From contig OZ237736.1 in NCBI GenBank assembly GCA_965178125.1, positions 868,001 through 932,000 on the forward strand: a stretch of 64,000 nucleotides of DNA, written 5' to 3'. The notes under the pieces were generated by a model. It worked only from the letters and a program-made list of their open reading frames with translations, was not told the DNA's origin and searched no databases. This stretch comes from Bilabrum cf. latius. Its lineage: Eukaryota. This document shows, one piece after another, positions 1 to 64,000 of the stretch. How positions within the stretch are numbered: position 1 is the stretch's first letter; each line of letters begins with the position of its first letter. The translations under genes were made by a program, and so were the position numbers.

Positions 1-12
1 CGGGCCTTGGTA

Positions 13-586
13 TTATTTGCAGCAGCCCCATCGTCGCGCCCCCCCCTACTGCTGGGCAAAGACCTCAATGACACTCCCTTCCTCCATCTGCGAGACGCTA
101 AAATTCGACAGCCACGCGCGAAGACGATTCACTGCAGCCATTTCGATCAGGACTGCGAATACTTGTTTGAATCTTACCCCGTAATGCTTGATTTGCTTGT
201 CTGGATCGTCGAGCTGCGATGAAGTCGGGCTTTCTCCAAATAAGCTATTTCATAAAACATGAATGAAATGCAAGCAATCAAAGAACATTGCTTACGGTGT
301 TTCCATCAAAGCTAAATCGGACCGCATCGGATGACAATCCATTCTGCTTGCAATACGCATCCATGATCTTGCGCGCAGGCGTCTTCTTCTTAACCTGCAA
401 AATCAAATGACAACAAGTGGGGGCTGCCGTGTGACATGTGAATGCATCAGGACACAAGGCCCATGCCAACTAACACCTGCAATTCGAACCGTCGTCGTAT
501 CTCACCTTAAACGTTATCTGCTCGCCATCAGAGGCCTTGACGACAATTGATATTTTGGAGCTACCGCTGTCGTCTGCTGCTGCCAT
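13..586 (-). CDS. SMT3: SUMO (small ubiquitin-like modifier) precursor, 4 exons, 1 in-frame TAG
   Basis: Exons 586-506, 394-296, 213-178, 87-13 (GT-AG, all phase 0) give MAAADDSGSSKISIVVKASDGEQITFK/VKKKTPARKIMDAYCKQNGLSSDAVRFSFDGNT/LDDPDKQIKHYG/MEEGSVIEVFAQQ*GGARRWGCCK-TAA. This has SUMO-type FKVK, RFxFDG and QxGG motifs. TAG at 46-48 precedes the GG. Confidence 0.92.
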
Positions 587-764
587 TATACACTCGGAAC
601 AATCGGGAGTACCTGGTCGACGTTGAGCTATCATTGGTTCCGCTACAATGGTTCCGCAAGCGCCGCGGCAGCGATACTGCGCGGCGCCTCCTGCACTTCG
701 TCTTCAGGCCATTTGCAGGCTTGAACGCGCTCGAAAGATGCACCACGTTTGGTTTGCTCATCAA

Positions 765-2198
765 ATGCGAGAGCTAGGCTCTTGTTTATGCGGTGTCGTT
801 GCATGTCTGTGCTGTCTGGGGCCTGTTTCACTCATTATTGCAATCGTCTTCTTTGTCGGAGCGGCTAGGAACCACAGAGAAGACCTGGTAGAGTCATACA
901 ATGGCGTGGTTGACATATGGAAGCATGGATTAGCGGCACAATTTGGTGCAATCTCGCCATTTTTGGCCCAGGCCACGGACGTCGGCATTAGTCGAAGAGT
1001 TGCTGTAAACTATACGAGCCAGCCTCCTCCGAGAATCGATTCTGGAAGCGACCTGGACAAGTATTCATAGCACCCTATATTCTATGGTGTTGGACGGCTA
1101 TTTAATGATGTGCATGGAGCCTACAACTGGCCCATCGACGACTCGCACTACGTTCCATCAGCGATTTAGATCCCGTCGTTCCGGGTCTTTTAGTAGAACT
1201 CTCAGTCCACCGTGCTGCCATACACTGGCGAGCACCCATCAGGCGGTGCTCCTGTGGTCTTCATGGCAAAGGAGTTTGGAGCATCGCAGTCGAGCTGCAT
1301 GTCAAGGCGGGGCATCTTTGTGGGCTCCCCTTCCTACATGGACGACGACGATTTCTCCACGCGAGACGATGATTACCACCGCTACGACGACGATGATGAT
1401 TTCAACCACCATCACCACCACCACAAGACTGTGAAAGGGGTGTGCATCACTTTCTGGGCCCTGCGGAGCGTGTGCGTCACTGTCACCGTCCCGTCAACGA
1501 CGACGCATAGGATGCCGCTGGCAGTGCGAAACGGAACCGGGGCCGCAGCTGTAGACCGCAGCTGGCACAACGAGGCCGGTTGCGAGGGAATCCCACAGGC
1601 GCTACGAGCAGCGACGGTCCCATCCGAGCTGAGGTTCGGATCGGCGGCGCCGTTCGGCGTCTCCTCCTTCGGGTACGAGCAGGTGCCCGCCTAGGGGAGA
1701 AGGGGACCGTCTGTGGTGAGCCTCAGCAGCACCCGCGTGACGGTCCGGTCGGGAGGGGACCCGTACGTGGAGGCGGTGCGCCTGACGAACGGGAAGCCCA
1801 CGTCGTTCGGTTTGACCAGGGCGACCCAGTTCGCAATCGCGGTGGCTTTCTTTGTGATCGGGGGGATTGGCTGTGCCATCCCCATTGGAATTCTCTGCTG
1901 GGTGCGGGCCTGCGTGGGCGGGGGCAGCAGCAGCAGCAGCAGCAGCGGTGGCTCGGCAGGAGGGCCGTGGGAGGGGCAGCAACCGCAGGGAGGGGGTGCG
2001 ACGGCGCCTCTAGTGCAGGGAGGAGGAGGAAGAGACGCCGGCGGCTGGTAGCCGTAGGATCCCTGGCAGCCGCCCGCCTCCGCGCCACCGCCAGAGGCAG
2101 TGTACGGTGGACCTCCCCAGGGTCCGGTGCAGCCGTACCCGGGGCAGGCGTATCCGAACCAGCCCTAGATGCAGCGTCCGGGGTTTATAGTTCAGTGA
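765..2198 (+). CDS. Uncharacterised membrane protein (N- and C-terminal hydrophobic segments, Asp/His-rich tract, Pro/Gln-rich tail)
   Basis: ORF-track pieces 648..1070, 1212..1694 and 1713..2051 share one frame, broken only by TAG, and end at TGA 2196-2198. TM-like segments LIIAIVFFVG and FAIAVAFFVIGGIGCAIPIGILCW. Start codon uncertain (648/738/765). Confidence 0.7.
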
Positions 2199-7504: not shown

Positions 7505-9859
7505 TCAACCAGCGCAAGCGACCTGCAGGGCCCTCTCGCCAGCGTTCGTCTGCGTGTTAATGCAAGATGGGTGCCCAGGCACGAGCGTGTGTGCACCAGG
7601 CAGGAAGTCATCTGCTCCACCGACTGTGGCCGTGCATCCGCCCTCCGTGCTCCCAAGGGTGATGCAAGACTCTGACTCGTTGAACGACAGGCTGAACCGC
7701 AGCCCACGGAAAACAAACCCACGAATCGTCATTCGAGTTGTGCCGGGTGGCAGAAGAGGTCTCCGTAGGAGCACCTGTCCGTCTCCAGCCTCGCCAGTCG
7801 AAGGAGCGAGCCGCATGCCAGCGTACCCGAGAACAAGGTTCTGCATGTAGCCACCAGCACCGGTCAGGAAATTGAGATTTCCGCCAACTTGTGCGCGCTC
7901 CATCCAAGTATTGAAGTGGCCGAGGTCCTGGTGCGCGAAAGCCAGCTGAAACTGTGAGTCCGCGGCCGTTCTATTGCCGAGCAGGAGCCACGCGACCGAG
8001 TACGACGAGTCTCCCGTAAACATGCCCTGAAACGGGGTGCGCGCAGTGTAATACTCGAGATCGGCCCTCTTCACCTGGTCGTCTAGCGGCCAGTACAGCG
8101 GATGCTGCAGCAGTGCAACGTCCGCTTGGTTGATCTCCTGGCCGTGGTACCCCTGGAACTCGGGGTGCACTCTGTGCCCAGGCCACAACGAATCGGATAT
8201 GGGAATGTAGGGGCGAGCGGACACCTCCCTCCACATGCGTGGGACACTCTTGCCAAGTCGCCCGGCCAGGAAGGCACAGAAATCCAGTGAAGCCGCTGCT
8301 GCCGCGTTCGTGTACACGCTCGAGTTCACGACTCCAGCCCGCTCGTCCGGAGGCTGCACCCCCAAGATCGTGTAGTTCACGGGACGCGCAGGGCCAAGCC
8401 CCTCCCGACTGAAGGACTTGCTACCGCAGTGGATGCCACGCTGCTGTCCAAGCTCATCTTCACCAGGCCCTGCATGGCTCAATAACTCCCCGGTCGCCGG
8501 GTCCACTGCACTGAACCTGCAGTACAAGAACGCGCACGTCGCGTTCGCCATGGGCCATGCGACCTGCTCTGCGTACGAAGGGTCAGACTTTCCGCGCACG
8601 CCCACTGCCCACAGGTAGTTCCGTAGCATGAGCACCAGGTCGGCAGACACGTGCTACTCGTACATGCCCTCGATGTTGGGTGCCTGCACCGTGTCCAGAC
8701 CAGAAAAGGCGCTTTCCCACGGCCAGTCGGCTCCCTCGAAGCCGTAGTCCAGCACCCTGGCCTCTGCTGCAGCCAGCCGCGCCCTCCTGTACTCGATCAT
8801 CGAGTGGCGGACCAGGTCAGGCCGCAGCAGGACAAGTGCCCCTTGGTCCCATGTCAGGCTGTCCCAGAATCTGTGCTGGTGGTAGCAGTTGCTCCCGGGC
8901 CCGCAAGGAGACACGCTCCACGGCTCTTCTGGGTGCATGCTCGTCATCAGGTAGTACAGGCTCGAGTTTGCAGAGGCTGCCACCGTCAAGTTTCCCTCAA
9001 TCTCCACCCCTGTTTCCCACCAGCTCGCCCACTGCTGCTCGTGGGACTGTCGGAGGGCCTCTGCGCCCTGGGCCATGGCGCGGTCGAAGAGCTGCAGTGC
9101 GTCGGCGACTGGGTTGCTCGAGCTGTCGTTTGACACGATGGCCACTGGGAAAAGCATTGGCTAGCCTGGAGCCAGCTATACCTGCACGGTCCCTCCAGTT
9201 GTGGAGGCCAGCGGGAGCACCATGGCGACGAGGTGAGCGGGCCCGCCCACTGTCTCTGCCTGCCTTGTGGTGCCCTACCACAAAACTGCATCCGATCCCG
9301 CGGGCGTCTTCACTGCTGACGAAGTCTGCTCGAAATCATTCACTGATTGGTTGCCGGCCAAAAAAGGCCACTGCAACACGACATCGAGCGTGGCAGTCTA
9401 CTAATCCGACTGCAACAACTCGATTTCTAGCAGCAGCAGCTCTCTTTGTTGGGCATGGGCATACCACCGAGTTTCAACTGTTGCGTTGGAGCGCTCAAAT
9501 AGAGTCAAATTCCGATACATGCTCCTTCTTAGATCCATTGCGCCGCCAATCGGTTTGACATCGTCACCAAGATTGTCATTCGCATCAAAGTGAGCGAGCC
9601 AAGGCGAAGGGATAGCAGCCGCGTCGCTCGGCGTTACGTTAAGATAGCCGTTGTACACACCAGTCATGTACGCCATGCCCTCATTGCCATAGTTCAGACC
9701 CTGGAACAACTCAATGCCAATCCTTCCATTCGAGATCCGAGGCATGTACCCTGGTTTAGGAAGATCAGCAGCAAAAAGCATATCCCCGGCACGTATTTCC
9801 TACTTCCATCTTTCGGGAAGAGCATACGACAATGCAGCCAAGGCTGCGAGACCAGCCAT
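7505..9859 (-). CDS. Glycoside hydrolase family 65, PGGHG/ATHL1-like, probably secreted
   Basis: Motifs YHQHRFWD, WPWESA, E*HVSAD, VQPPDE...VNSSVYTN, NFLTGAGGYMQ. Single frame through TAGs; ends TGA. Hydrophobic N-terminus MAGLAALAALSYA. Confidence 0.85.
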
Positions 9860-10021
9860 ACTGCCAAGAGTAGAATAATTGCTTTGTTCATATGGCTCCG
9901 GATTATTATTATTAGTAGTAACGTTATTATTTCTCAATACTGTGATTTTCAATTCGCTGGCTCCAGCACGTTGTGAGGTGAATCTCCCATCCATGCCGGC
10001 ATAATTGCTATTCACGAAGGC

Positions 10022-11849
10022 ATGTCCGTTACATTACATGTTTGGCTAGCTGTATGTGCAGTAGCTATTCAAAGTATAAGCAATGCATACGGAATTCGCG
10101 TGGCTGCGACGAGGTCCCAGGCGGACGACATCGCCCGCGTGCGAAAAGAGCTTTGGACCACAGGTAAGCAGCTGAAACTCTGTCAATTGATGAATTCGGT
10201 ACGATTTTTCAGCAACGGTACTCCAAAACCTGCACGTTTTCCTACGCAGGAAAGCGCCAAGCTGCTAAGCAAGAGCAAGCTGCGCTCCAAAGCCACCTTG
10301 CCGCTGAAATGGATAAGTTAGGCGTACCACCCGATTATTTGGACCCGCGAATTCCTGTTGAGGCTTTCAAGGCCGAAATGGTTCCTCGCCATGTCATGTT
10401 TGCCCCGCCTCCCGAGCTTCAACATCTTGGGATTGGTGGGCCGAACGGGGCCGGATTGCAATCAATTCACCCGTTCACAACGTAAGACCACTTCCGAAAA
10501 GTCATGGTTGCATGCCGTGTGCATGGTACTCTTGTCCTATCGCGCCTCCGAACAGCCCGTTTCGCAGATTGCCAACAAAGTCGGACCTGGTAGCCGGCCA
10601 GGGCCGCAGAGACGCCCTGGCTCACTTGCCCGCGCTGAGACACCTGCTAGCCATGTACCCATAGTACCGCCACTTGGCTCCCATGTATGGGGCGGGGTGG
10701 TGGGGCATGGATCCCACGCTGAACCCGGATGTAAGGCTGCCTCCTCCGCACGACCCCGCTGCAGTGGGAGGAACCGGGGATGGTGTGGGAGATCCGGAAG
10801 TGCAGGCCGCGATAGCACGGGCAGACCAGCTCGCCTCCAAGGCGGGCCAGCTCGCCCGCTAGGCACCGGGGAGTGAAGAGGCAGTGGAGGCAGCCAGGCG
10901 AGCCGACAGAGCCATCGCGCTGCTGCCACCCGCCGCAGCGTCGGCTCTCCTGTTCCGTCGATTCGCGGGATCTCGGGCGGGCACTCCGGCGCATGGCCTC
11001 CCTGGCGGTATCCCTACGGAACAGGGGCCTTGGGACGTGGACCCGCTGGACCGCAGGTATGGCTGGGGGGATGGAGGTGCCATGGAGTCTGGTTGGTCCG
11101 GGACACTGGCTGATGCTGGCCTGCAGGGGCACACAGACGCAGGTGCGGCCACTGCTCAAGGAGGTGCGCTGCGCGCCGCGATCGGTAGGAACAGCAGAGG
11201 CGCCCCAGCTGTAGAAGCTGGCAGCCAGCCGGGCGCAAGTCCACCATCTGGCGATGTCTTGCAGAGCGAGGAGCCCAGGACCACTGACTGGGCCAAGGCA
11301 GGGCACGAGGACGCTGAGAGGTTCAGGAGCAAGCTGCAGCAACGCTTGCAGCAAGACAAGAACCGCGAGGGTGGATCGTGGCTGGACGGCACTGCGGATC
11401 CCGCCTCGGACTGGCGGGCTGCACGAAGAGCAGCGGGCTTGCCAGTGACCGAGGGCAGCTCGTTTCACACGGGATCAACTAGGCACACTGCCTTGCACCC
11501 GCTCGAGCCAGCCCCCTCCACGGAGTGGGTGCGTATGCCCAGGGGCTGGCAGCCAGGGCAGTCTGCGTACTCGTTGGCGGCGAGAAGGGGGGTGGAGAAA
11601 GCACGATCGCGGACCCGCTCGCTGTCCGCTGCAAGCTTGCTCCAGGCAGGTGCCACCGAGAGCTCGTCCTCGTCATCATTGCACAACAGGCCTCCTTCCT
11701 ACAAGCCCCAGGGCGCCTCTGACACGGTACACATGCAGTACAGGAACGCCCCGCTGCTGCCCCCAGGCAGTTCAGCTGCGACGATGCGTGCAGTACTGCA
11801 CCCGCGCGGGCCTTCCATGCAGCCAGAGGCAGAGGTGGGCGGTAAGGAA

Positions 11850-11881
<32 letters not shown>

Positions 11882-24610: not shown

Positions 24611-24684
24611 GATTGGGGGCAAAGTAGTGCAGTTGACGTGGATGTGCAGTAAACAACTTTTCCTTCTGAAAATGCACGCAATAA

Positions 24685-24778
24685 GCCCGAAACGCGCGGC
24701 GACGAAAAGGTTCCGCATCAGCTGTCTGGCCACCACTTCAAGGAATCATGCCTAGAGCAAGACGCGTTTTTTTCCTGC
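24685..24778 (+). repeat. Copy A of a ~95 bp imperfect direct repeat (degenerate duplicate of the ETHE1 upstream region and first codons; lies upstream of PreP)
   Basis: First 40 nt (GCCCGAAACGCGCGGCGACGAAAAGGTTCCGCATCAGCTG) identical to 30168-30207. Continues ...CATGCCTAGAGCAAGACGCGTTTTTTTCC versus CATGCTCAGAGCAAGACGCGTTTTTTCCC. Confidence 0.9.
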
Positions 24779-45489: not shown

Positions 45490-45693
45490 CACTATTTGTT
45501 TGTAACGTTCGGTTCCAAAAAGTTGGAAATTGTCGTTGATGGGATTCAGCCGGCAGAAAGCGATAATCTGGCTCTATTGCAAGGGAAATAGTAAGGATTC
45601 GCCGTCAATATACGAATTGCAGTGTGATTAGCCACATCATTCGTTGCAACGAGAGCTTCATTCGGATTTCGTGTGCTGATTGAGGCGTGACGC

Positions 45694-47773: not shown

Positions 47774-49114
47774 TCATCCCCGAGTCATCCACTCGGGCTC
47801 CTGGCCCGCGTCCCTGGCGTCATCCAGCTCGTTCATGGCCTGCCTGAATTCCTCCACAGACACCTTGCCCTTCTCGCTCAAATCGTAGTGATCCTTGGCA
47901 CGCTGGTACACGGCCGCAAACTCGCCGTCCGTGAAGCGTCTCCCGATCCTCTCGAAGATGTCTCGGATCGTCCTCGAGTCCCTCGTCTCGACAAAGTCCG
48001 AGTGGTCCACCGAGCGGCTCATGAATCGGCTGGGAGTCACCAGATACTTGACGTCCACGTCCTGGCCGAAATTTTCCTTGCTGGCCAGGGACTGCTGCTT
48101 CCTCGGGGGCACGTCGGTCCGGAGGCTGGGCACGCCGTACACGCGGGAGGGGTCGTGTGGGATGTTGCGGTAGCCCGCCCTGGTTGCCTTGCCCACCGTG
48201 TCGTCGGGGCGACGGTCTGCCTCGTCGTAGTCTCCACGGATGCAATCTGCGGCGGTGGTCCTGTCGGCTGCGCGCTTCACGAGGCCAAACCGCTCCGGGG
48301 GCGGCTGGTCGTAGGCGGCCTGGCCCCTGTTCTTGGTTCGTCCAAGGTGGTCGTGCTGGAACTCGCGCTGCGCAGCGACCTGGATGGGAATCAGCCTCGT
48401 GATGATGGCTTCTTCGTCCTCGCTGGGATCCAAGCATTTGCCCACGCCATTCTTTTCTGGTTTTCGCGCAACTACTCCGAACCGTGACTTGATGGGGTCT
48501 CGCCTGCTGGCCTCCCATGCAACTCCATGCTTGCGCTGCTCGCCGGGCTCGTAAGCGCCGTGAGAGATAACATGCTGGCGCTTAAGTTCGCTATCTGTGT
48601 GAATATCTGTGGAGTCGGCCGGGTAAATGAGGTCTTTGGAGCCTTCGGCTTCCTCGGACGGCTTCCCGCAGACCCTCTGGCCTTCCTTGAAGCCTGGTGG
48701 CAACCTAGCGCCGTGATCGTACCCCTTACCCAACGCTTCGCGCTTTGCAGATTTGTAGATTGCGCCCGCCTTCTCTTCCATCAGCTCCTCCATGGGAGGT
48801 TTTCGCAAGTCCATCACCTCTGAGGCGCCCTCTGCGGCTGGCGCGACTCTGCCGTACACCTTGTCTGTATCAATCGGATCTTTTCTTGCTGGGCCCATTG
48901 CCTTCACTCGGATGCCAGGTTCCTGCACTGGCCGATACTGTCTGATTTTGTCGGGAGTCGGAGGCCGCTTGCCAAACTTGATGCAAGCCTCGGCATCTGC
49001 GTCGTCCCCATAAAACTTCACACCGGCTGCTCGCATCCGGTGCGTAAAGCTAGGGTCATCAGAAGGATTTACATATCCTTTGGGGGGCACATAAACCCGG
49101 GGTGACTCCTCCAT
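47774..49114 (-). CDS. EFHB: EF-hand domain family member B / CFAP21-like ciliary protein
   Basis: IYKSAKREALGKG, SHGAYEPGEQRKH..W, YGVPSLRTD, C-terminal EF-hand-like GKVSVEEFR. Uninterrupted ORF; ends TGA. Confidence 0.75.
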   Translation of the reverse strand: MEESPRVYVPPKGYVNPSDDPSFTHRMRAAGVKFYGDDADAEACIKFGKRPPTPDKIRQYRPVQEPGIRVKAMGPARKDPIDTDKVYGRVAPAAEGASEVMDLRKPPMEELMEEKAGAIYKSAKREALGKGYDHGARLPPGFKEGQRVCGKPSEEAEGSKDLIYPADSTDIHTDSELKRQHVISHGAYEPGEQRKHGVAWEASRRDPIKSRFGVVARKPEKNGVGKCLDPSEDEEAIITRLIPIQVAAQREFQHDHLGRTKNRGQAAYDQPPPERFGLVKRAADRTTAADCIRGDYDEADRRPDDTVGKATRAGYRNIPHDPSRVYGVPSLRTDVPPRKQQSLASKENFGQDVDVKYLVTPSRFMSRSVDHSDFVETRDSRTIRDIFERIGRRFTDGEFAAVYQRAKDHYDLSEKGKVSVEEFRQAMNELDDARDAGQEPEWMTRG

Positions 49115-49294
49115 ACTGAAGACTCTGGGCAACAGTGTTCTGAGATCCGTTTGGGAAGTCGCCGCGCCAAAGGTGCCGGCTGTGGTGGTTCCGCAAGCAA
49201 GGCAGCGCTGGTGGAGGCCGTTGGTGTACCTCTTTGTAAGGCTGTTTCAAAGCACCTTTCTAAAATAACTCTAGAACTCAATGCTTGGACACAA

Positions 49295-52229
49295 TCACGC
49301 AGTCTCGGCCTTCCGCTCTGCCGAGGCACTTGCGCTCGCAGCCCCCGCACCCCCGCCGGTTGGCAGTTCCTGCCCATCGGCCAGCACGGGAGCTGCCGCC
49401 GCCGTACCCCCTACCTCCCCTCGCAGCTTCTTGGAGGTCTCACCCCCTGCTCCCGAATCGGAAGACTCCGAAGAGCTCCTGCGCCCCTCCAGCCGCCTCT
49501 GCGCCGCCCGCAGCCGCGCGCCGGCCTCCTCCATCAGGACAACCTTGACCTTCTGCACAGCCTCCCCGATGTCATCCTCCCTCACTACCAGGCTCAGCAG
49601 CTCGGCGCTCGGGGGCTCCATGGGTCCAGACGGGCCCGCGTCGTCACCGTCGCCGAACGACTCGCTCTGTGCATGGCTGATCGCGTCGCTGTTGGTCCTC
49701 CTGCGGCGGGCTTGCGACGCCTCGTATTCCGTCTCCGTCTCGCCCGACTTAGTCGGCTCCCCGTCGCAGCAGCCCGCGCAAGGGCACTGGTCCAGCGGAT
49801 TGTTCACGCCGCAGGGGTACTTGCAGTTCCACAGCGAAGGTTCGTTGGCCTTCTTTGCCCTGGCCTCGTAGCTGTGTGCGTACCTCTCGTTGTCGGTCAA
49901 CCTATCCCTCACGGGGCCCCTCACGCAGGCAAGGAACAGAGTGGGCACCTTGAGTGGGACCACCTTCAGCAGAGAGAGGCGCGCCTCCGCTGCCTGGCGA
50001 TCTTGGAAGAACAGCGAGTCCGTGTCCGGGTCGTGGATGTCAACCAGCGCCCGCTTCTGGTTTGCCGTGAGCTCCGTCTGCCCCAGCGAGATGGTCAGCT
50101 CTGCCACCTCGGCTTCCAGTCTCTTGGCGGCAGCAGCGCACGTGTGCTGCGAGGCGCGCACAGACAGGGCCCCACCGCCCGCCGAAGCGCTAGCGTGCTT
50201 GTCGTCTGCGATGCTCGCCTCGTGCTCCCCCTCGGCCAAGGAATGCGACCTCGCCGCACCCGCGCTGCCAGACCCTCGCTCCACACCGTGCAGCTGCTGG
50301 TCCTCCCCAGCCGTGTGCCCCTGCCCCGCGTCCATCTGCGCAATCGCAGACCGCAGGACCTGGATTCTCTTGTCCCTTCGCCGCTTCGCGCCCTTCATGA
50401 GCTCCTTGGGCACTGCCTCCAGCCCATGGACGGCAGAGGAATCCAAGGTGGTCATCGCCGAGCAATCCAGCACCACGGCCTCCGGCGCCAGGTGGCCCGC
50501 TGGCGGCTGGGACAGCTTCACGACTAGCTCCTTGAAGAAGACGGCATTGGCGAAGAACATCTGCGCGTCGAAGCGGACGACCACGAGGCCAGCTTCCTCC
50601 TGTGGTGCACCACCGAAGCGGTTCACGTTGCGCCACGTGTCGGTTCCCGGCAGCTTGCCCAGTCTAGCAACGTGCGGCTGGGCCGCCTCCTTTAGGAGCC
50701 TCACGATGGAGATGCCGGCACCCACCAAGATGCCCACCTCGATCCCCAGCACGATGGTGCAGACGAAAGTCACAATATAGACGAAGAAGTCGGACTTGTC
50801 CACCGCCCACAGCATCCGGGGCGTCTCGAAGTCGAAGAGCTTGGTGACGGCGAACAGAATCAGCGTCGCAAGTGTGGCAGACGGCAGGTTGTAGAAGAGG
50901 GGCGTCAGGAACAGCACAGCGATAGTCAGGATGATGGCTGACACTGTTGAGCTGAGGGGCGTCTTGGCGCCCGCGTCCGCGTTCACGGACGTGCGGGAGA
51001 AACCGCCCGTGGTCGGGAATCCGCTGAAGAAGCATCCGAATAGGTTGGCGGCGCCGAGGCCCACGAGCTCCTAGTTCGAATCCACGTCGTTGTTGTACCT
51101 CAGCGCCATGGCCTTCGCAACTGAGATGGACTCCATGTACCCCACAACCGCGATCAGGAACCCGCTGGGCAGGAGCTGCGTGAAGTCAGACCCGAAGTCC
51201 CCATCCAGGATGTTGGTGGCCCCGGGCAGCCCGCTGGGCACGTCGCCCACAACAGAGACGCCCTCGTCCTCGAGGTTGAGCCCTGCCGCGATGGCGATGT
51301 TGACGACCACAACGATGAGGGCGTTGGGGATGGCGTTGAGAATCCGGTCGTAGGTCTTGCTCTCGTCCTATTTGACCACGGGCAGGCTCTTGAGGAACGT
51401 CTTGAGGTACTTGAGGAGGTAGAACATGGCCAGGTTCTCGATCGAGATCACAAAGGTGAGCATGTGCGTGTCGCCCAGGTTGGCCGCCACGTCGTACCAC
51501 GTCTCGTAAACGTACTCGTGCCTCGGAATCTTCAGCCCAAATACCTTGGACAGCTAAGAGCTCCCGATGATGATGGCTGCTGCCACGGTGAAGCCTTTGA
51601 GCACCGGATGGGACAAGAAGTTGACGAGGTACCCGGCGTGCACGAGGCCCATCACTAGCTGCACCAAGCCGACCACGAACGACAGCTTAAACGCCAAGTT
51701 CTGGTATCGCTCTGCATCGTCATCAGGGTCAACTCCCAATGCTGTGATACTCGCTGTCGTCAGGACGCTCATGAGAGCTACAGGGCCTACGGCCAGCTGA
51801 GGGCTGGTGCTGAAGATTGGGTATATGTACAGCGACATGATCGAAGCATACAGCCCTGTAATTGGCGGCATAGATGCTAATGACGCGTATGCCATGCCTT
51901 GTGGAATCAGCATGACTGAGAGGCTAGTTTGGAGCACAACAGCAGAATTGGGAAGTGTCAGCTGGCCAGTGTACTGCGCTCAATCAGTCGTAAACGCCGC
52001 CCTACCCTCGCGAATCGGGACTTCTATAGTAATCAATCTCACCAGCGACAACAAGGCCCGAACTGAGGTCGCCAGACAGGCTCCCAACGAAATCGCTCGC
52101 ATAGGAAGTGCTCAGCCATCGGTGGATCTCGACGCGAGGCACATAGGACCATATGTCAAACGGCTCTACCAAATCATTTCTTGGTATTCTATTTGATCTA
52201 TCCTCGGTATTGACTGTCTGTTGAGACAT
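49295..52229 (-). CDS. SulP/SLC26 sulfate-anion transporter with STAS domain
   Basis: GDLSSGLVVA/VMLIPQGMAYA, GLY, LAVGPVAL, FLSHPVLKGF, SS*L, ESISVAK, DSN*ELVGLGAAN, TGGFSRT.VN..AGAKT, RFDAQMFFAN, LDSSA. Intron 51916-52042; ends TGA. Confidence 0.95.
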
Positions 52230-57754: not shown

Positions 57755-58680
57755 ATGATGAATGTATTTAGATTTGTTGCTGATATGCTTCATTTAGCTA
57801 GTTTTGCCGTGCTATTGCTGTAGATGTTCCAGAATAGCAGTGCAAGAGGTGGGGATAACGACTGCAACACGGCACCTCCTTGGTCCTGTGCGAACCGCCT
57901 AGTTTGTGCTACAAGACCCTTTATTTTTGCCATACGATCGCAGGTCTAAGCAGAAAAACACAAGAGTTGTATCTGATCGTATTCTTGACACGGTACATCG
58001 ACTTGTTCTTCCATTTCGTGTCGCTGTACAATACAGTCATGAAGATGCTGTACATTGGGCTAACTGGATACACAGTGTATTTGATGACCGCCGACAAGAA
58101 ATTCTCTCGCACATATGATAAGGAGCACGATACATTCATGCATTGGAAGCTTGCGGTGCTTCCGTGCTTGGTCCTTGCTGTGGTATGGAATGAGGCTTGG
58201 TGGAACCTGACGGGCGTGTCAGGGCTACGGTGGTTCAAGTGGTGGACTGTTGAGTGGTTGTGGGCATTTAGCATTTTCTTAGAAGCTATTGCTATCTTCC
58301 CGCAGCTTATTGTACTGGAGCGAGGGCAAGACCTTACTAGCATCACTGGCCTGTACGTGCTGTGTCTGGGCAGCTACAGGGCCCTGTACATCGTAAATTG
58401 GATCTGGCGGTACTGGGCCGAAGGATACATCGACTATATTGCAGTGTTTGGCGGGGTGGTGCAGACGCTCTTGTACACCGATTTCTTTTACCGGTACTTC
58501 AAGGCGCTCAACGCCGGCTTGCCGGGAGCCAAGGAGAGGGCGCCGGGACAGGCTGCAAAGTTCGGGCTTAGCGTATTTCAGACGCTTTCTGCACTTGGAC
58601 GGACAGCTGTCAAGCAGGTTACCACTGCAGCAAAGCAGGTGGCGGCCAAGAAAGCGCCAGCTAGGGCGAGGCCAGACTGA
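57755..58680 (+). CDS. ERD2: ER lumen protein retaining receptor (KDEL/HDEL receptor)
   Basis: MMNVFRFVADMLHLASFAVLLL*M..G/LSRKTQELYLIVFLTRYIDLF, TYDKEHDTF, WAFSIFLEAIAIFPQL, LGSYRALYIVNWIWRY, GVVQTLLYTDFFY. Intron 57849-57943; ends TGA. Confidence 0.95.
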
Positions 58681-58827: not shown

Positions 58828-61800
58828 TCAAAACAGTCCCTCAAGCCTAGCGCAGTCAGACACGCCAAGAGAGTCCACTTTGCCGCCACGTGCACCTAGC
58901 AGCCGCTACATCCCCTCTGCAGTGACCGCGTGCTGATGAGACAGGCGGAGAGTCCTGAGGGGCGCCCCTGCACCGACGATGGCATCGAGGCAGGCGTCGT
59001 TCACAGTATCCCCCTCGGGACTCGACCAAGCCGTTGCGGGCGCCGAATCATGCACACCATCCTTCACAACGAGCACACCCAGCTTGGTGCTCAGTCGCAG
59101 CACGTGCATCAGCTCGTTTGCGTGAATACCGGCGCACATGGCCAGCTGCAACGACTGGAGGTTTGCTGCCCTTGGCCTGATCGCTGCCAGCAGACCGCCA
59201 TGGGGAAGGGGTAGATAGCTCAACTGCAAGTCAAGAAGCGGCGCATGCTGAGAAGAAGGTCCCCCACCATGGCATACCGCGTGGCATTCGCATGCCGGTG
59301 CTTCAGATGCCCCCGCCCCTGACGCGGGGTCTGCGCCTACTTGGCCATCTGCTTGCTCTGTGGCATCAGTTTTGCTTTCTGAATCAGAAGCAGCCATTCC
59401 CAGCGAGCGCTCCAGCTGCACCTGATTGCGTATCTGCCCGCACGAAACCAAGCTGAGCACCCTATCTCTCGCCTGCTCCGTGTCGAACACCTCCTTCCGT
59501 CTCACCTACCCACGCGATGAATTCCAACGGAGCCTCTGGGTTCCTAGCGCCACGCCATTTCCGGTACCTGTCAACTCCACCGAGCCAAGGACAGGACACG
59601 TCTAGACCAGTGCTAGCCTGCAGTCCAGTGCACCGTGTGCCTTGAGGCTCCTCAGCGCTGGGGCACGCACACCTACCACGAGCCGGCGTTCCATCGGGCC
59701 CTCCTGGGACAACTTTTGTCGAGATGATTCCAGGCATCGCTCGGCAAACTGATTGAAAGATTCCGACTCTTGGGTTGGTTTGGACTAACCAGCATAAGCT
59801 GCCAATTCCCCAGACTCTACTGCACCATGCACCGATGCTGCAGTTGCAGCAGCCCCAGAGCTAGTACCAATATTTGCAGCGATGGAGCGCCCAGACTCGT
59901 CCATAGCACAAAGCTGGTCTTTCAATAACACCAACTCTTCTACAGCCTAGTCAGCCCGAACAGCAGCTGCATTGGCTCCGTTGGGGTCGGCACACCGCAA
60001 GGTGAGCTGCTCAAGGCTAGCGCTGTCTATGCAGGCGAAACCATCTGCAGCAGCAACAGCAGGCCTGTCATGAGATGAAGTGGTACTACCGCCATTTTGA
60101 TCAATGATACCCCCAGCTTCGACTAGCAGCCTGTCCATGTCGGCCCGCAGATCCTCCAGAGCCTCCACCAGTGGATCAGTGGTACGATCGACTGCTCCTG
60201 CGCTTGCGCCGCCGAGCCCGCTGTCCGCTGCCTGTGCCACGTCGAACAAACGAGTATCCTTGACCCGTTGCCTCTGTCTAGTATGCGAGTGGTCATGGCC
60301 ACTGCACATGGTGCGGGCCGAGTCCTCGCTTGCATGCACCTCGATGCCCGCATGCATGCGAACCCTGCGTGCCTCCTCGTTCTTGTACGCTGTGATAAGA
60401 TGGATGAGATCGCTCGCTGCACCTAGGAGCCTCTCAGCCGCTAAATGGACGCGATGTGGCGGCTGGATTACTGCAGAAAGCTACTACAAGCAGCGGCAGT
60501 GCTTGCTGATGGCAGCAAGCGTGTCTGCGTCTATGGACTGCTGCACATCCAGAACGAGTGCGCGCATGCTAGCCGGGGGATGCACAATGGCAATACCAGA
60601 GCGTCCGAAACACCCACAATACCCCAAGCACTGTGCTACTTCCTTCGGTTTCATGCGGTTGGGACCAATGCCGGCAATGACAGGGTCATGTGCCTGGCTT
60701 CCTGCGCCTGCTACGCCCGCAGCTGCATCATCGACCTCACCGCTCTCAAGAGTGTCCTCATAGTTGCTAAGCCGAAGCACCTGGGGGACAAAACGTGGGC
60801 TTGCAGTGCCGTGGTCTACCAAGCTCTCGCTAGATTGCCTGTCCAGTCGCTGTAGCTGGGCGTTGATTGGCTCGAACTCCCTGCTTCCCACCGGGTCCAT
60901 CCAACGAATGCCTCGCAGACCTACGCCGGACACTTCCACGGAATCACACCCATTCGGCAAGCACAGCCACAGCAAGCATTTTCTCTCCAAAACGTCGCAT
61001 ATCTTCTTGATACCTCTTGCAAAGCCACCGGGTGCACTCTTGCCCCCCAATGAGATACCCAAGGCTGCAGCAGTGCCGCCGTCACCCTCATCGTCTGCAG
61101 ACGTGTGCCGTGCCACGAAAGCTGCCAGGCCTTGCGACGCAAACTCGCTGGGGTCTGTGGATCGAATTATGCCTGCTACTTGGCCCAAATTCGTCTGCAG
61201 CTGCGGCCAAGCAAGATGAGCCTGCTTTAGGACCGGGCACGCCCTTAGGTCAACCACGAGGAGAGGGTCACTGGAGCTGTGCGCGTCAGTGTGGGCCGCC
61301 GTGGCAGCTGTGGACGGCATCCACAGTGAGCATGGGATGGAGCAGCAGCTCAGGTGCAGCACGTGCAAGTACTGCAGCGCAAGCCTGCCGACAGGCAGAT
61401 CAGTCGGCACATGGGCTAGCTGCTAGGCGAGCACTCCACTGCTCTATCGGGACGGCGCAGCAGCTCGCTCAACAATCTGCCTTGCGTTCGTCGGAACTTG
61501 CAAGCTCAAGCGCTCTAGGCATGGAAACGACATCAGAAGATCTGAAATAGCGGGCGGTGGATGGTGCTCGAGATCCTCCTCAGATGCCTCAGCAGGCGAG
61601 GCAGCGTCCTTCGGCTGGAGCAGGTAATACAAAGCTGACTGGCTAATGTTGAAGTCGAGCCTGCGAATTGCGTTACGACTCATTTTTGCAACGGATACGA
61701 GCTGCATGGCGTGCATAGCTGCTTCTAAGACCTGTCCATCCCGCCAACCGAGCCCGGCATCACACAAAATGGACTGGAGGGAAGCCTACCTGCTTGCGTC

Positions 61801-62043
61801 GTGCAGCGCATCAAATCGATTGTCTGCCCGAATTCCTAGGAACTCAATCACTTCTCTAGGTGTTGATCGCTTCCAAGGACTTTGCCTGGACAAATCTAGG
61901 CAGCCACACAAGGAAATTAGAAGCTGCCTTTGTGCTTCCGTAGCAAGGCTTTTGCTCAAGGTTCGAATCATTAGTTGCTCTCGCAAGCACAAGAATCGCT
62001 AAAAAAGGAACATCAAACCCAAATCTGCAAGCTTTTCTAGCAT
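58828..62043 (-). CDS. F-box-like / leucine-rich-repeat (FBXL-like) protein
   Basis: N-terminal MLEKLADLGLMFLF*RFLCLREQLMIRTLSKSL (F-box-like) and LRR-like units (FPCLERLSL, LQYLHVLHLSCC, LQSLQLAMC, LRTLRLSH). One frame through TAGs; ends TGA. Confidence 0.6.
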
Positions 62044-62137
62044 AGTGTCCTGTTAAGTGCGTCAAGCCAAAGCATCCTTTATCCAATCCGGAGCTGGAGA
62101 TATGGATGAACATTCTACGATATGATCGCATTTAGTC

Positions 62138-64000
62138 ATGGATTTCGAAGATGATGACTGGGACAATGCAAATGAAGCTTCCTTTGAAGAGAGTCTCGAG
62201 TCGAACAATGGTGGCATCCCTTCTACAGCGGCAGCGCAGTCTTCGGCAAGTGCGTCATCAATTTTCCCGGGTGCTGCAGCGCTTTACCAAGCCAAACTGC
62301 CAGACCTGCAGGGGGCTTCTGGCGAGCAGACTCCATCCAAAATTGAGCCTGTTGCAGGCGCTGCGGGCTAGCGGCTGCTTTCGAGTGCAGATGCCAGCAA
62401 CGCGAGTGGTGCCTCAAGCGATGGCGTGTTTCTAGATCTCTCCAGTCGACGCGATCAAAACTTACCATCCCAGCCAGAAGGTGATGCATCTAGAACAGCT
62501 GAATTCATGAGAAGGGTCAATCCTTCCCATAATCGCCCCAACCCGAGGTTCGAAAAGTATAAGGAGCAGCTACTCCAGTCATGTCGACGCGACCTGGCAC
62601 GATAGACCATTCTTTCAAAGCTGTCTGCAGCATAGGCTCTGCACCGGTCGCATCTGACCATGATGCTCGCATCGTTGGTCCAACGGTCTTCGGCCTCTTG
62701 CAATCCTGCCCTGCAGTCCATCCTTCTTTCGTCTATGCCTGCTCGATTGCTCGCTGCAAGCCACAGGCGTCCCGTGCCCGGTGTGAGCCGAGGATTGACA
62801 GTAAGTACGCTTCAAACACTATCACTGAATCACATTGGTACATTGACGCGGTGGTTTGGCTCTCAATTCGAGGCGGTCGGGCGTGGGAGCGGTCCTGCCA
62901 CTCCACCTGCCCAGCACGTCGCCACCTCTGAATGGCTGCTCGGGCTTGCCATGCAGCCGCTGCCGCAGCTATCCATCGAAGAGCAGCGGGCTATGTAGAG
63001 CGGAATGGCAGTGCGTAGACAAAAGCCCGCTGCACCGGCAGATTTCGTGCAGCTGTTCGCCGCTAGCATAAGAGCAATGGGCGTACCCTGCAGGCTAGCA
63101 CTCATGGGCGATCCGTTCGATGTCGCTGGCTTCATGCAGGGCAAGGTGGCACAAGCTCGACAAGAAGCCGCAGAGGCAACAAAGCGTGCAAAAATCGAAA
63201 GGAATAAGAGCACGAGAGAAATCGAGATAGATTTGCTCGGGGAAGAAGGAGAGGAAGGTGCAGCTGCTGCAGCAAGCTCGAGTGGCTCCAGTGGCGCGCC
63301 GGACTCCTCAAAGTCATCTGCGAGGCCAGGGACAAAGCGAGGCAGGCCTAGCACAGATAGTAGCCAGGGAACACAAAAATCAAAGCGCAGACGGTCCACG
63401 CAGCAGCAGTCAAAACCAGCCGACTAGACAAGGCTGTGCGGCTCGCTAGCACTAGGGTCTAGAACGAGGTAGGCAGAGCAGGTGGCCATGGCAGACTTCT
63501 AGGCAGCTTCCAGGAGAGCGAGTGGCCGCTGCGCGAGTAAGGCGAGCGAACTCAGGGATAAGCATACGGGCATTTCGGGGGGTTCCCGTTCGGGCGCAAA
63601 AGGGGGCAGCAGGAAGAGCAGCAAGCTTGCGCCTAGTTCCATGCCGGCTTGGAGGAGGCTGCTGCCCAATCCGAACCGGCCCCAATTTATGCAGGAGCTT
63701 GCAAGCGCTGGTGTTGTTCGATGGTGGGTCGAAGTTCTCACGCACGGGCCAAGTGAGGAAGAGGAGGAACCGGGTGGGCAGCAGGCTGCCGCTGCAGCTG
63801 CTGGATTGCCACCTCGTGCAGGTTCAGCGTCCTCTGGCGGCAATGCGCAGGCAAGTGGAGGTGCTTCCAAGCCTCGGTGGGTATTCGTGGATCCGATCAG
63901 GCAGCTTGTTGATACTCCTTTGGTACCTGCTGCTCTAAGGGCAAAATCAGATCCAGTTCAGTACGTACTGGCTGCCTCCGGGTCTGGGCGACTGACCGAC
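62138..64000 (+). CDS. XPC: DNA repair protein XPC/Rad4 (5' part; runs off the window)
   Basis: HLTMMLASLVQRSSASCNPALQSILLSSMP, FVQLFAASIRAMGVPCRL, WWVEV...RWVFVDPI..VD...YVLAA..GRLTD (Rad4 transglutaminase-like domain). One frame through TAGs. Confidence 0.85.

Follow-up and report, generated by a model that had tools for sequence, protein, structure and literature searches.

Sixteen of the 19 open reading frame (ORF) segments that we chose in a 64-kb stretch of DNA (hereafter the window) carry at least one in-frame TAG. This raises the question whether UAG is read as an amino acid in these genes and, if so, as which one, and which codons end translation instead. A first-pass annotation had read UAG as glutamine (Gln), with UAA still a stop. 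This core reading held in every test run, based on RNA, alignment columns, likelihoods and terminators, and we conclude that UAG is very probably a sense codon for Gln in the nuclear genes, with UAA and UGA kept as stops. Reassignment of UAG alone to Gln is a rare change of the genetic code, of a kind already known from Iotanema and some ciliates.

Gene content and origin of the window

The features of the window are listed in Table 1. Its GC content is 55-64%, and the DNA contig that carries it is at least 27.5 kb long. Pfam identifies the mitochondrial proteins GatB and PreP among the products of the window. Its SulP protein groups with that of Cafeteria roenbergensis, which is the closest named relative on the basis of this one gene. 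Judged from sequence, the source is nuclear DNA of a eukaryotic GC-rich flagellate, whose closest named relative, in this one-gene placement, is probably the marine stramenopile Cafeteria.

The first-pass annotation had suggested an independent and undescribed reassignment, in an organism that is neither Iotanema nor a phyllopharyngean ciliate. The latter part stands, because SulP groups with C. roenbergensis, GatB and PreP are mitochondrial and the contig has 55-64% GC. The 'undescribed' status rests only on the one-gene placement and on negative literature results, as no stramenopile with a UAG-only Gln code was found in the literature searched, which had incomplete coverage.

Table 1. Features of the 64-kb window, with TAG codons counted in frame.
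Feature	Position	Strand	Details
TALE/KN homeobox ORF, 1,552 codons	2616..7271	+	13 TAGs; Pfam Homeobox_KN E 1.3e-06
GH65-family glycosidase	7508..10033	-	7 TAGs; Pfam Glyco_hydro_65m; PDB PGGHG E 8e-55
Low-complexity ORF, 1,524 codons	10362..14933	+	16 TAGs, one directly ahead of CAG CAG run at ~13245
ORF, 1,703 codons	15373..20481	+	14 TAGs, TAA end; no Pfam family matched in Pfam search
PreP (M16C), C-terminal half	20616..22502	-	one TAG, TGA end; Pfam M16C_assoc E 4.9e-50, PreP_C E 1.4e-29
PreP, N-terminal half	22784..24745	-	2 TAGs in poorly conserved N-terminal region; Pfam Peptidase_M16, Peptidase_M16_C
ELW-type repeat protein	24911..26557	-	2 TAGs (25535-25537, 25187-25189)
GatB amidotransferase, mitochondrial-type	32993..35941	+	5 TAGs, TAA end; Pfam GatB_N E 1.7e-80, GatB_Yqey
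Kelch-repeat membrane protein	36673..38664	-	5 TAGs; Pfam Kelch domains
Low-complexity ORF, 1,360 codons	39813..43892	-	13 TAGs
Spliceosomal intron, 98 nt	45222..45319	-	joint in X5, X6, X7; absent from X1
ORF, 629 codons	45691..47577	+	3 TAGs, TGA end
EFHB (ciliary EF-hand protein)	47777..49246	-	no TAG, TGA stop; Pfam EF-hand_EFHB_C E 3.4e-19
SulP/SLC26 sulfate permease, main exon	49298..51979	-	3 TAGs; Pfam Sulfate_transp E 1.5e-97, STAS
SulP in-frame TAGs	51554-51556, 51368-51370, 51071-51073	-	terminator TGA 49295-49297
SulP intron, 127 nt, GT..AG	51916..52042	-	joint 51915 to 52043, one contig each in X5, X6, X7; not in DNA run X1
Coiled-coil protein, 1,725 codons	52578..57752	-	14 TAGs, TGA end
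Intron of gene 57859-58677, 95 nt, GT..AG	57847..57941	+	joint in X5, X6, X7; absent from X1
ORF of unknown family, 1,074 codons	58831..62052	-	11 TAGs, TGA end
ORF past window end	62126..64000	+	7 TAGs; X5 contig 62140-64000
TAGs cited in first-pass annotation	PreP 21195-21197; SulP 51071-51073, 51554-51556; GH65 8654-8656; ELW protein 25535-25537	-	in frame

In-frame TAG codons

The dozens of in-frame TAGs noticed earlier on both strands amount to 117 (59 on the plus and 58 on the minus strand). Neither TAA nor TGA occurs in frame in the 16,872 codons of the 19 ORF segments. In the two other frames of the same segments, TAG was counted 139 and 140 times, TAA 45 and 67 times, and TGA 277 and 337 times. 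Calculated from off-frame rates, the chance of a 1,687-codon frame without TAA or TGA is about e^-36. All five TAG codons singled out by the first-pass annotation are present in frame on the minus strand, and the TAG-CAG runs that it mentioned lie within a few bases of 43968 (minus) and 13245 (plus).

With the standard code, no frame stays open for more than 591 codons. If TAG is read through, six frames reach at least 1,000 codons (1725, 1703, 1552, 1524, 1360 and 1074). ORF length alone is no proof that TAG is a sense codon, and we therefore used tests that are independent of it. Long open frames enclose TGA about as often as TAG (0.157 vs 0.159), owing to the rarity of TAA and TAG at 60% GC.

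The spans in which homology fixes the reading frame comprise 2,804 codons, with 10 TAG, no TAA and no TGA, while the off-frame rates were 8.3, 4.3 and 16.9 per 1000, respectively. A frame caller that is blind to stop triplets was trained on the homology spans and scored outside them. Its 8,397 coding-frame codons contained 7.5 TAG, 0.48 TAA and 2.6 TGA per 1000. Furthermore, Pfam domains were matched end to end across TAGs (Sulfate_transp at 12-380 of 380, M16C_assoc at 1-250 of 252).

Transcripts and introns

Runs X5, X6 and X7 come from two studies, neither of which produced the DNA run X1. Their contigs are transcript-sized, show three GT..AG joints as well as loose ends of poly(A) type, and have no other letters. 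We took these runs as RNA from the spliced joints and the poly(A)-type ends; the automatic labels are guesses, and call X5 'probably DNA'. The spliced joints of 98, 127 and 95 nt, all with GT..AG ends, bear out the introns of about 100 nt that had been predicted.

The four runs, from three studies, matched the window over 20 kb without indels and with no base difference listed. All 38 in-frame TAGs within 44001-64000 were covered by X5, and 22 of these by at least two runs. Persistence of TAG in mRNA, which the first-pass annotation had proposed as a check, was thus observed: the TAGs are unchanged in spliced, polyadenylated transcript contigs, with the proviso that contigs lose rare variants, so that minority editing would escape view. 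The 100% identity among runs suggests that they probably represent one strain, and rules out technical error rather than strain-specific biology.

Dense in-frame stops are typical of pseudogenes and bad sequence, and on this a priori ground alone one might suppose that the TAGs are untranslated, i.e., assembly or C-to-T artefacts, edited or spliced-out sites, or parts of pseudogenes. We consider this extremely unlikely in view of the agreement of four runs from three studies, the retention of all 38 TAGs in spliced contigs, the fact that the only joints are three canonical introns with none of these TAGs in them, the full-length domain matches, and the lack of TAA, TGA and frameshifts in the genes.

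We calculated the share of each transcript that is covered by its longest ORF under the standard code and with TAG, TAA or TGA as sense, respectively. The shares were 62, 98, 62 and 63% for SulP, 14, 94, 14 and 30% for the 1,725-codon coiled-coil gene (T4), 30, 100, 30 and 31% for T6, and 30, 100, 30 and 57% for T7. Hence, a single ORF over 94-100% of the four longest transcripts was obtained only with TAG as sense. SulP is covered by transcript contigs with no differences. The coiled-coil gene is covered over 52271-57629 by one X5 contig, again with no differences, and over the same span by two X6 contigs. X5 contigs match ORF 58831..62052 over 58879-62041 with no differences, and its TAG-sense ORF accounts for 100% vs 30% under the standard code; the same percentages apply to the covered part of ORF 62126..64000. 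ORF 45691..47577 is matched over 45566-47623 by X5, X6 and X7 contigs with no differences. Here, coverage was 92% with TAG as sense and 90% with TGA as sense in another frame, such that ORF length does not separate the two.

If UGA (e.g., to Trp) rather than UAG were reassigned, 23 frames of at least 500 codons would open, vs 19 with TAG as sense. TGA also lies within open frames as frequently as TAG does, and on transcript T1 the two readings cover 90% and 92%, respectively. However, what reading through TGA opens is for the most part the antisense strand of GC-rich genes or another of their frames, TGA is absent from the homology-fixed codons despite its high off-frame rate, and TGA as sense covers only 30-63% of the four longest transcripts. 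Moreover, TGA closes 15 of the 17 ORFs, at points that coincide with the end of homology or of the transcript. A reassignment of UGA in place of UAG is therefore vanishingly improbable.

Identity of the amino acid

About 4 of the 117 TAGs only are located at clearly conserved columns. In SulP, all 119 homologues have Q at the column of TAG142, and at that of TAG303 Q is present in 117 of 120 and R in the other three. PDB alignments of SulP gave Q in three of three at TAG142, and Q in two and S in one of three at TAG303; the relative P0002, with 97% identity, also has Q at TAG303. PreP TAG436 (21195-21197) is aligned with the Q of the motif PT-Q-VNY in the Arabidopsis PreP structure 2fge (one homologue). 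The GH65 TAG at 8654-8656 lies within the catalytic-domain motif E-x-H. At this column (TAG460), 141 homologues have Q 62 times, I 34, H 11, V 10, N 8 and L 7 times as the six commonest residues, which do not include Glu. The earlier claim of a conserved Gln column is thus correct in that Q is commonest, but Q is not constant in the family (62/141).

Summed HMMER-weighted emissions over nine profile-aligned TAG columns were highest for Q (+9.43), followed by K (+2.44), N (+1.96) and E (+1.07), and Q ranked top both on the three conserved and on the six variable columns. A homology-free test on the profile of 694 flanking residues also favoured Q, with log-likelihoods below that of Q for R (-3.5), H (-5.2), K (-5.5) and E (-12.2). 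Near TAG, Q was enriched 1.49-fold, which equals the self-clustering of Gln (1.45), and E occurred at 0.76-fold. The alignments, in which another favoured residue would have spoken against the first-pass reading, hence have Gln at conserved columns and top in likelihood. Standard-code gene calls of relatives with 79% and 65-68% identity end exactly at the Q450 and Q632 of the window.

Several sites face Glu. SulP TAG204, in a variable insert, is opposite E in P0002 and D in P0001, and Kelch TAG474 (37243-37245) is opposite E in P0121, the sole relative found (70% identity). The gene call of P0242, a relative with 94% identity, ends at the E180 of the window. The ELW repeat position facing the TAG at 25535-25537 has E in four other units, Q in one and H in one. 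The parallel that had been drawn between this TAG and the protein's own Gln repeat consequently applies to one unit and fails for the four with E. Together with documented codes in which UAG or UAR specifies Glu (PMC10553269, PMC12153298, PMC11687900), these sites would be consistent with UAG as sense for Glu, or as ambiguous between Gln and Glu, as in some ciliates and Blastocrithidia.

Such a code would, however, replace Gln at the near-invariant SulP columns and in PT-Q-VNY of PreP, would put at the GH65 column a residue outside the six commonest, and conflicts with the lead of Q over E by 8.4 ln units in the profile likelihood and by 12.2 in the neighbour test, as well as with the depletion of E beside TAG. 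Some E partners at variable sites would be expected even if TAG encodes Gln, since Gln is expected to be replaced acceptably by Glu more often than by any other residue, and a single base separates GAG from TAG as well as from CAG. We therefore regard Glu, alone or mixed with Gln, as very unlikely, and Gln as the residue specified by UAG.

Termination codons

The ORFs terminate at TGA in 15 of 17 cases and at TAA in two. The C-terminal end of SulP, set by its TGA, is the same residue as in P0002. EFHB has a poly(A) site near 47720, about 54 nt downstream of its TGA; in X5 and X6, the loose ends of T8 to T10 fall there, on 47720 and 47721. PDB alignments of GatB extend as far as the bacterial C-terminus, near residue 968 of 983, and the TAA follows 15 codons past the end of this alignment. 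Our reading of UAA as a stop is based on the two terminal TAAs and the absence of TAA in frame.

The commonest variant nuclear code by far has both UAG and UAA as Gln (UAR, NCBI table 6; PMC11687900), and TAA might merely be rare in these GC-rich genes, as it is the rarest stop triplet in all frames (414 vs 1,023 TAG). Yet CAA makes up 24% of CAG plus CAA (189 vs 589), from which about 37 TAAs would be expected beside the 117 TAGs, and none was observed in the ORF segments or in the homology-defined codons. No ORF, in the DNA or on a transcript, grows longer when TAA is read through, 83 TAGs but no TAA have a frame open over 200 codons to either side, and TAA ends two ORFs, including GatB just beyond the end of homology. 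It is highly improbable that UAA, too, encodes Gln.

UAG might also be dual and context-dependent, i.e., sense internally and a true terminator near some 3' ends, as in Condylostoma and karyorelict ciliates (10.1101/2022.04.12.488043); this overlaps with our preferred explanation. The final TAG of GatB (35924-35926) would fit such a role, as it lies only six codons ahead of the TAA and just past the end of bacterial GatB homology. However, TAGs do not pile up at ORF ends, with the last TAG 26 to 592 codons upstream of TGA or TAA in 13 of 14 TAG-bearing ORFs checked. The TGA-defined SulP C-terminus agrees with that of the 97% relative, and the 3' UTRs observed after TGA are short (about 42 and 54 nt). 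We consider dual use unlikely, although the last TAG of GatB may serve as a terminator.

Proposed decoding mechanism

In the mechanism that we propose, cytosolic translation would read UAG as Gln, with UGA as the main and UAA as a further terminator. By analogy with known codes (PMC5304391), decoding is predicted to involve a tRNA-Gln with anticodon CUA, an eRF1 with weakened UAG recognition and a glutaminyl-tRNA synthetase tolerant of the CUA anticodon. This anticodon pairs with UAG and not with UAA, and differs by one base from the standard tRNA-Gln(CUG) (PMC5304391). ARAGORN and Rfam detected no tRNA genes of any kind within the 64-kb window. Once the codon was free, TAG codons would arise mainly from CAG by C-to-T changes. 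The share of TAG among putative Gln codons (about 13% overall, 8.7% in conserved spans) and the exchange of TAG with Gln codons in close relatives fit this origin.

Comparison with known codes

The first-pass annotation had named Iotanema and phyllopharyngean ciliates as cases of UAG alone for Gln, in agreement with PMC11687900, which adds Protocruzia tuzeti. In the fornicate Iotanema spirale, UAG encodes Gln, UAA is the main stop and UGA is a stop as well (Panek et al. 2017, PMC5304391). Like the organism of the window, Iotanema is a flagellate in which UAG alone has changed to Gln while UAA and UGA stay stops, and the two would share the mechanism inferred for Iotanema, with tRNA-Gln(CUA) and an altered eRF1, both predicted for the window. 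In contrast, Iotanema is an anaerobic metamonad, whereas the window has mitochondrial GatB and PreP and a SulP near that of the stramenopile Cafeteria, and the main terminator is UAA in Iotanema but TGA in the window (15/17). The data analysed for Iotanema were from its transcriptome only, and the eRF1 change T32G was observed there (PMC5304391).

UAG as Gln with UAA as stop is also used by two phyllopharyngean ciliate lineages and by Protocruzia tuzeti (NCBI table 15; McGowan et al. 2024, PMC11687900). These ciliates share with the window the codon, the amino acid and the widespread use of sense UAG. They have 27-54% GC and end 87-98% of their genes in UAA (PMC11687900), whereas the window has 55-64% GC, introns of 95-127 nt and mostly TGA ends, and is unrelated to them by its SulP affinities.

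UAR encodes Gln (table 6) in Tetrahymena and other ciliates, hexamitid diplomonads, Streblomastix, some ulvophyte green algae and the aphelid Amoeboaphelidium (PMC11687900, PMC5304391). The change of UAG to Gln is shared with the window, and several of these lineages are known to have tRNA-Gln(CUA). However, UAA is Gln as well in table 6 codes, whereas TAA is absent in frame from the window and ends 2 of 17 ORFs.

UAG has been uncoupled from UAA, as in the window, in the rhizarian exLh and a ciliate lineage (UAG as Leu), in Scotinosphaera (UAG as Ser) and in an uncultured ciliate (UAG as Glu, UAA as Lys) (PMC5304391, PMC11687900, PMC10553269). These codes assign another amino acid, and in the window L, S and E score far below Q. 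Finally, crAss-like and other phages with genetic code 15 make the same codon-to-residue change, TAG to Gln (PMC9523058). Theirs are bacteriophage genomes with suppressor tRNAs acting late in infection (PMC9523058), whereas the DNA of the window is eukaryotic and nuclear, and its genes have spliceosomal introns and polyadenylated mRNAs.

Gene content of the window

The window has a GC content of 55–64% and contains densely packed eukaryotic nuclear genes on both strands. The genes encode a TALE homeobox protein, a GH65 glycosidase, the presequence protease PreP (in two ORF pieces), an ELW-repeat protein, an ETHE1/rhodanese fusion, a La-like RRM protein, a mitochondrial-type GatB, a Kelch membrane protein, the ciliary protein EFHB and a SulP/SLC26 permease. 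Family membership of EFHB was confirmed in the protein atlas, which offered little guidance on taxonomy. Several other long proteins, of low complexity or coiled-coil type, match no Pfam family. No tRNA or other RNA genes were found in the 64-kb window with ARAGORN and with Rfam at gathering thresholds, and the eRF1 gene is absent from the same 64 kb.

The GatB ORF (see the table of coordinates) is about twice as long as bacterial GatB (~480 residues). Large insertions separate its conserved blocks, and its N-terminus is considerably extended; four of its five TAGs are located in these extra parts. The translation of the N-terminal part of the ELW-repeat protein shows a Ser/Pro/Thr-rich unit of 12 residues in ~9 tandem copies before the ELW repeats, which resembles a mucin-type or cell-surface stalk. 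The two PreP pieces are ~280 nt apart, and the gap is predicted to contain an intron, or an intron and a short exon. Genes are tightly packed and their 3′ UTRs are very short. The 3′ ends of two convergent genes are ~100 nt apart.

Coordinates of features within the window
Feature	Position (nt)	Strand
Gap between the two PreP pieces	22503-22783	-
ELW-repeat protein, N-terminal part with tandem unit	~26000-26557	-
GatB, 983-codon ORF	32993-35941	+
GatB, last in-frame TAG	35924-35926	+
Convergent pair, first gene	45691-47577	+
Convergent pair, contig end	47623	
Convergent pair, poly(A) site	47720	
T-run loose ends of transcript contigs	47720 and 47721	
Convergent pair, second gene	47777-49246	-
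Tight packing with short 3′ UTRs (EFHB, SulP)	47577-47777, 49127-49298	
SulP, with C-terminal extension	49298-51979	-

In-frame TAG in genomic DNA

The first-pass annotation had proposed that UAG is read as glutamine in these genes, and all TAG coordinates that it cited were correct upon re-checking. With the standard code, no stop-free frame exceeds 591 codons, while reading through TAG yields six frames of 1,074–1,725 codons. In total, 117 in-frame TAGs (plus strand, 59; minus strand, 58) were found in the 16,872 codons of 19 ORF segments, with at least one TAG in 16 of these segments. ORF length was nevertheless dropped as proof of reassignment. It is insufficient in this genome because read-through of TGA opens as many or more long frames, and open frames enclose TGA just as frequently as TAG. 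We replaced it by tests that are independent of ORF length, based on homology-defined spans, a stop-blind frame caller and RNA-defined transcripts.

The homology-defined spans comprised 2,804 codons of SulP, PreP, GH65, GatB, EFHB and ETHE1, and were fixed by homologue alignment alone. They contained 10 TAGs but neither TAA nor TGA, against off-frame rates of 8.3 (TAG), 4.3 (TAA) and 16.9 (TGA) per 1000. Pfam domains matched end to end across the TAGs. The frame caller was based on codon usage, blind to stop triplets, trained on the homology spans and applied outside them. Across 8,397 coding-frame codons, it found TAG at 7.5 per 1000, approximately the off-frame rate, compared to 2.6 per 1000 for TGA and 0.48 per 1000 for TAA. 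At its strictest threshold, seven TAGs, one TGA and no TAA were present in 2,363 codons.

TAG accounted for 10 of the 115 putative Gln codons (8.7%) in the homology spans versus 117 of 895 (13.1%) over all ORF segments. It was also rarer in the most codon-biased frames, with 2.96 per 1000 at the strictest threshold of the frame caller. TAG thus resembles a Gln codon that is disfavoured or was acquired recently, and that builds up at sites of low constraint.

UAG in spliced transcripts

Seven public runs contain at least half of the sampled words of 45691–55600. Four runs were aligned to 44001–64000, namely the DNA run X1, runs X5 and X6 of one other study, and run X7 of a third study. In X1, all of 44001–64000 was contained in one 27.5-kb contig piece without differences or joints, as expected of DNA; this run may be the window's own source. 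Runs X5, X6 and X7 yielded transcript-sized contigs that lack stretches of 98, 127 and 95 nt bounded by GT..AG, and T-run loose ends were located behind the minus-strand EFHB gene. From these joints and poly(A)-type ends we infer that X5–X7, whose run records carry no RNA label, represent mRNA, and we treat them as such because their splice joints are absent from X1.

The contigs of X5, X6 and X7 showed no base difference and no indel relative to the window. All 38 in-frame TAGs of 44001–64000 were located within X5 contigs, and 22 of these 38 within contigs of at least two runs, while none was located in an intron. Hence, TAG persists in spliced, poly(A)-ended mRNA, as the proposed reassignment predicted. 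The identical sequences imply that the runs probably stem from one strain, such that they are independent as experiments but not as organisms.

The share of each transcript covered by its longest ORF was calculated with each of the stop triplets read as sense in turn. In the four longest transcripts this share rose to 94–100% with TAG as sense, and TAA as sense had no effect. Transcript T1 failed to separate TAG from TGA, and three short transcripts were uninformative.

Longest ORF as share of transcript length in the four longest transcripts
Transcript	Standard code	TAG sense	TAA sense	TGA sense
T3 (SulP)	62%	98%	62%	63%
T4 (1,725-codon coiled-coil ORF)	14%	94%	14%	30%
T6 (1,074-codon ORF)	30%	100%	30%	31%
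T7 (ORF running off the window end)	30%	100%	30%	57%

Together, the RNA contigs and the transcript ORFs rule out assembly error, a C-to-T artefact, splicing-out of the TAGs, pseudogenes, and RNA editing at the majority level (contigs would miss minority editing). The outcomes that could have overturned the first-pass annotation, with TAGs edited, spliced out or produced by sequencing artefacts, are therefore contradicted at this level by the contigs of X5–X7.

The amino acid encoded by UAG

Conserved positions point to glutamine. The alignment column of SulP residue TAG142 contained Q in all 119 homologues, and that of TAG303 contained Q in 117 of 120 homologues and R in the other three. In three solved structures, the residue was Q in 3/3 at TAG142, and Q in 2/3 and S in 1/3 at TAG303. 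PreP TAG436 aligned with a Q of Arabidopsis PreP, the single homologue available for this column. The column of GH65 TAG460 was more variable, with Q in 62 of 141 homologues, followed by I (34), H (11), V (10), N (8) and L (7); human PGGHG has V at this position.

For residue scoring, profiles were built from the homologues alone, which gave nine profile-aligned TAG columns, three of them conserved, in this single 64-kb window. The log-odds summed over the nine columns were +9.43 for Q, compared to +2.44 for K, +1.96 for N, +1.37 for H, +1.19 for S and +1.07 for E. Q ranked first on the three conserved columns and on the six variable columns alike. A homology-free neighbour test compared how well the neighbour profile of each residue predicts the 694 residues that lie up to three positions from a TAG. 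Again Q performed best, followed by R (-3.5 ln units), H (-5.2), K (-5.5) and E (-12.2). Q was also the residue most enriched near TAG (1.49-fold, compared to a self-clustering of Gln of 1.45-fold), whereas E was depleted (0.76-fold). Conserved columns, profile sum and neighbour test thus all put Q first, in support of the proposed glutamine assignment. Recoding of the pyrrolysine or selenocysteine type was rejected, because Gln is preferred at the TAG columns and nearly every gene uses TAG, at a frequency of ~7 per 1000 codons.

Some observations in close relatives and in internal repeats do point to UAG as glutamate, or to mixed decoding. The SulP relative P0002 (97% identity) carries E opposite TAG204, in a variable insert where the SulP relative P0001 (73%) has D, but the same P0002 carries Q opposite TAG303. 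Similarly, the gene call of the GH65 relative P0242 (94%) ends at residue E180 of the window's protein, whereas the gene calls of the 79% and 65–68% relatives end exactly at Q450 and Q632. Kelch TAG474 is opposite E in P0121 (70%), the sole match in the Kelch homologue search, and the repeat position facing TAG341 of the ELW protein is E in four other units, Q in one and H in one. Glutamate is the commonest accepted replacement of glutamine, and a single base change turns either CAG or TAG into GAG. The glutamine reading therefore predicts E partners at unconstrained sites, while a glutamate reading would need Glu at near-invariant Gln positions. We consider glutamate or mixed decoding very improbable.

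UAA and UGA as stop codons

The 17 ORFs checked ended in TGA (15) or TAA (2). The C-terminal residue of SulP is the same as in P0002, and its transcript contig ends ~42 nt past the TGA. In EFHB, a poly(A) site is located ~54 nt beyond the TGA. Several genes have a second in-frame TGA within 12 codons of the first. UGA is still a stop codon, with zero in-frame TGAs in the homology spans versus 16.9 per 1000 off-frame. UAA is still a stop codon as well, although the sample of TAA terminators is small (two of 17 ORFs, one of them at the end of GatB homology, 15 codons beyond the point where the bacterial GatB alignment stops). CAA constitutes 24% of CAG + CAA, and hence by simple arithmetic a reassigned TAA would be expected ~37 times beside the 117 TAGs, while none was seen. 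Moreover, TAA read as sense lengthened no ORF or transcript ORF.

Of the 14 TAG-bearing ORFs checked, 13 had their last TAG 26–592 codons upstream of the terminator. The exception is GatB, where a TAG occurs six codons before the closing TAA, just past the bacterial GatB homology. This is the sole site in the window where TAG could be a real terminator, and the code may be context-dependent, as in Condylostoma or karyorelicts, with UAG occasionally terminating genes too; each of the 17 predicted reading frames runs to a TGA or TAA. Overall, it is highly probable that UAG encodes glutamine while UAA and UGA serve as stop codons.

Phylogenetic placement and relatives

The best named match of the SulP protein was from Cafeteria roenbergensis (58% identity), and all closer relatives were environmental sequences. 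In a quick maximum likelihood tree of this one gene, the window's SulP grouped with P0002 and P0001 (support 100), as sister (84) to a Cafeteria clade (98) and apart from Bacteroidota; the window contains no rRNA or standard phylogenomic marker. From EFHB a cilium can be deduced, and from GatB and PreP a mitochondrion that carries out translation. The organism is probably a heterotrophic, bicosoecid-related stramenopile flagellate, with SulP as the one gene behind this placement.

Among 5.8 billion proteins, the nearest to the SulP proteins of this organism and the Cafeteria group are those of Bacteroidota (43–48% identity), which lack the C-terminal extension of ~350 residues. The likeness could mean that this eukaryotic clade obtained the gene from bacteria long ago, or could be a product of sampling bias.

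Standard-code gene calls of relatives with 65–97% identity (P0242, P0157, P0196 and P0002) start just downstream of the window's TAGs. Those of the relatives with 65–94% identity begin right after TAGs 78, 291 and 460, and end at E180, Q450 and Q632. In contrast, P0001 runs without a break over 561 residues. Probably the relatives of the first group have in-frame TAGs of their own, some of them at other sites than in the window, with a fast turnover between TAG and CAG, and their gene-call boundaries suggest that the code is common to a clade. Two scans of metagenome contigs did not find the DNA of the 70–73% relatives.

Proposed mechanism and implications

By analogy with cases treated in sections of PMC5304391, three changes may underlie the reassignment. 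A tRNA-Gln with anticodon CUA, one mutation away from tRNA-Gln(CUG), would decode UAG but not UAA. The N-domain of eRF1, in which these sections link the GTS, NIKS and YxCxxxF motifs to UAG recognition, would be altered such that it no longer competes at UAG. Finally, glutaminyl-tRNA synthetase would tolerate the changed anticodon.

Codes that split UAG from UAA are rare, and serve to test why the coupling of the two codons is so seldom broken. Another independent case would extend the comparison to a different stop-codon economy, combining a GC-rich genome and ordinary introns with TGA as main stop. Such a GC-rich, TGA-dominated case bears on codon-capture and ambiguous-intermediate models, and on the loss of UAG recognition by eRF1. 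The organism evidently grows well enough for three studies to have obtained a genome and RNA data from it. If this genome or its environmental relatives are annotated under the standard code, most proteins will be cut to fragments; the gene calls of the relatives are already fragmentary, and metagenomic gene catalogues will therefore misrepresent the clade.

Comparison with known genetic codes

Searches of main texts, in a body of literature with few subscription journals, returned no variant nuclear code in stramenopiles, bicosoecids, Opalozoa or Placidozoa. The data date from 2025, and a description may already exist or be imminent. The main text of a 2024 overview of stramenopiles (PMC11412368) contains neither 'UAG' nor 'stop codon', and the one place where it mentions 'genetic code' or 'codon reassignment' cites a paper on mitochondrial codes. 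A match to 'TAG to glutamine' in a passage of the Carbon-A preprint concerns Tetrahymena rather than stramenopiles.

UAG and UAA have different meanings in one fornicate, one rhizarian, one green alga and a few ciliate lineages, according to the relevant passages of PMC11687900 and PMC5304391. Passages of the former list changes of UAG only to Gln in Iotanema spirale, Protocruzia tuzeti and two phyllopharyngean lineages, and changes of UAG only to Leu, Ser or Glu in a few other lineages. The first-pass annotation had named the Iotanema and phyllopharyngean cases, in agreement with this list, which adds Protocruzia tuzeti. Its suggestion that the reassignment may be independent and undescribed fits our searches, which revealed no stramenopile with a variant nuclear code. 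A code in which only UAG changes from stop to Gln is already known elsewhere.

Taken together, we see about an even chance that the full picture holds, i.e., an independent and unreported origin of a UAG-only stop-to-Gln code in a free-living, GC-rich, bicosoecid-related stramenopile, which would be the first variant nuclear code of stramenopiles, common to uncultured relatives down to ~65–79% protein identity, and arisen where UGA, not UAA, dominates termination.

The organism differs from Iotanema in that it is not a fornicate. In phyllopharyngean ciliates, GC content is 27–54% and 87–98% of the genes end in UAA, as given in part of PMC11687900, whereas the window has a GC content of 55–64% and 15 of 17 ORFs end in TGA. 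Compared to the known cases, its distinctive features are a GC-rich genome, TGA as main terminator, and an apparently cultivable organism with genome and RNA data.
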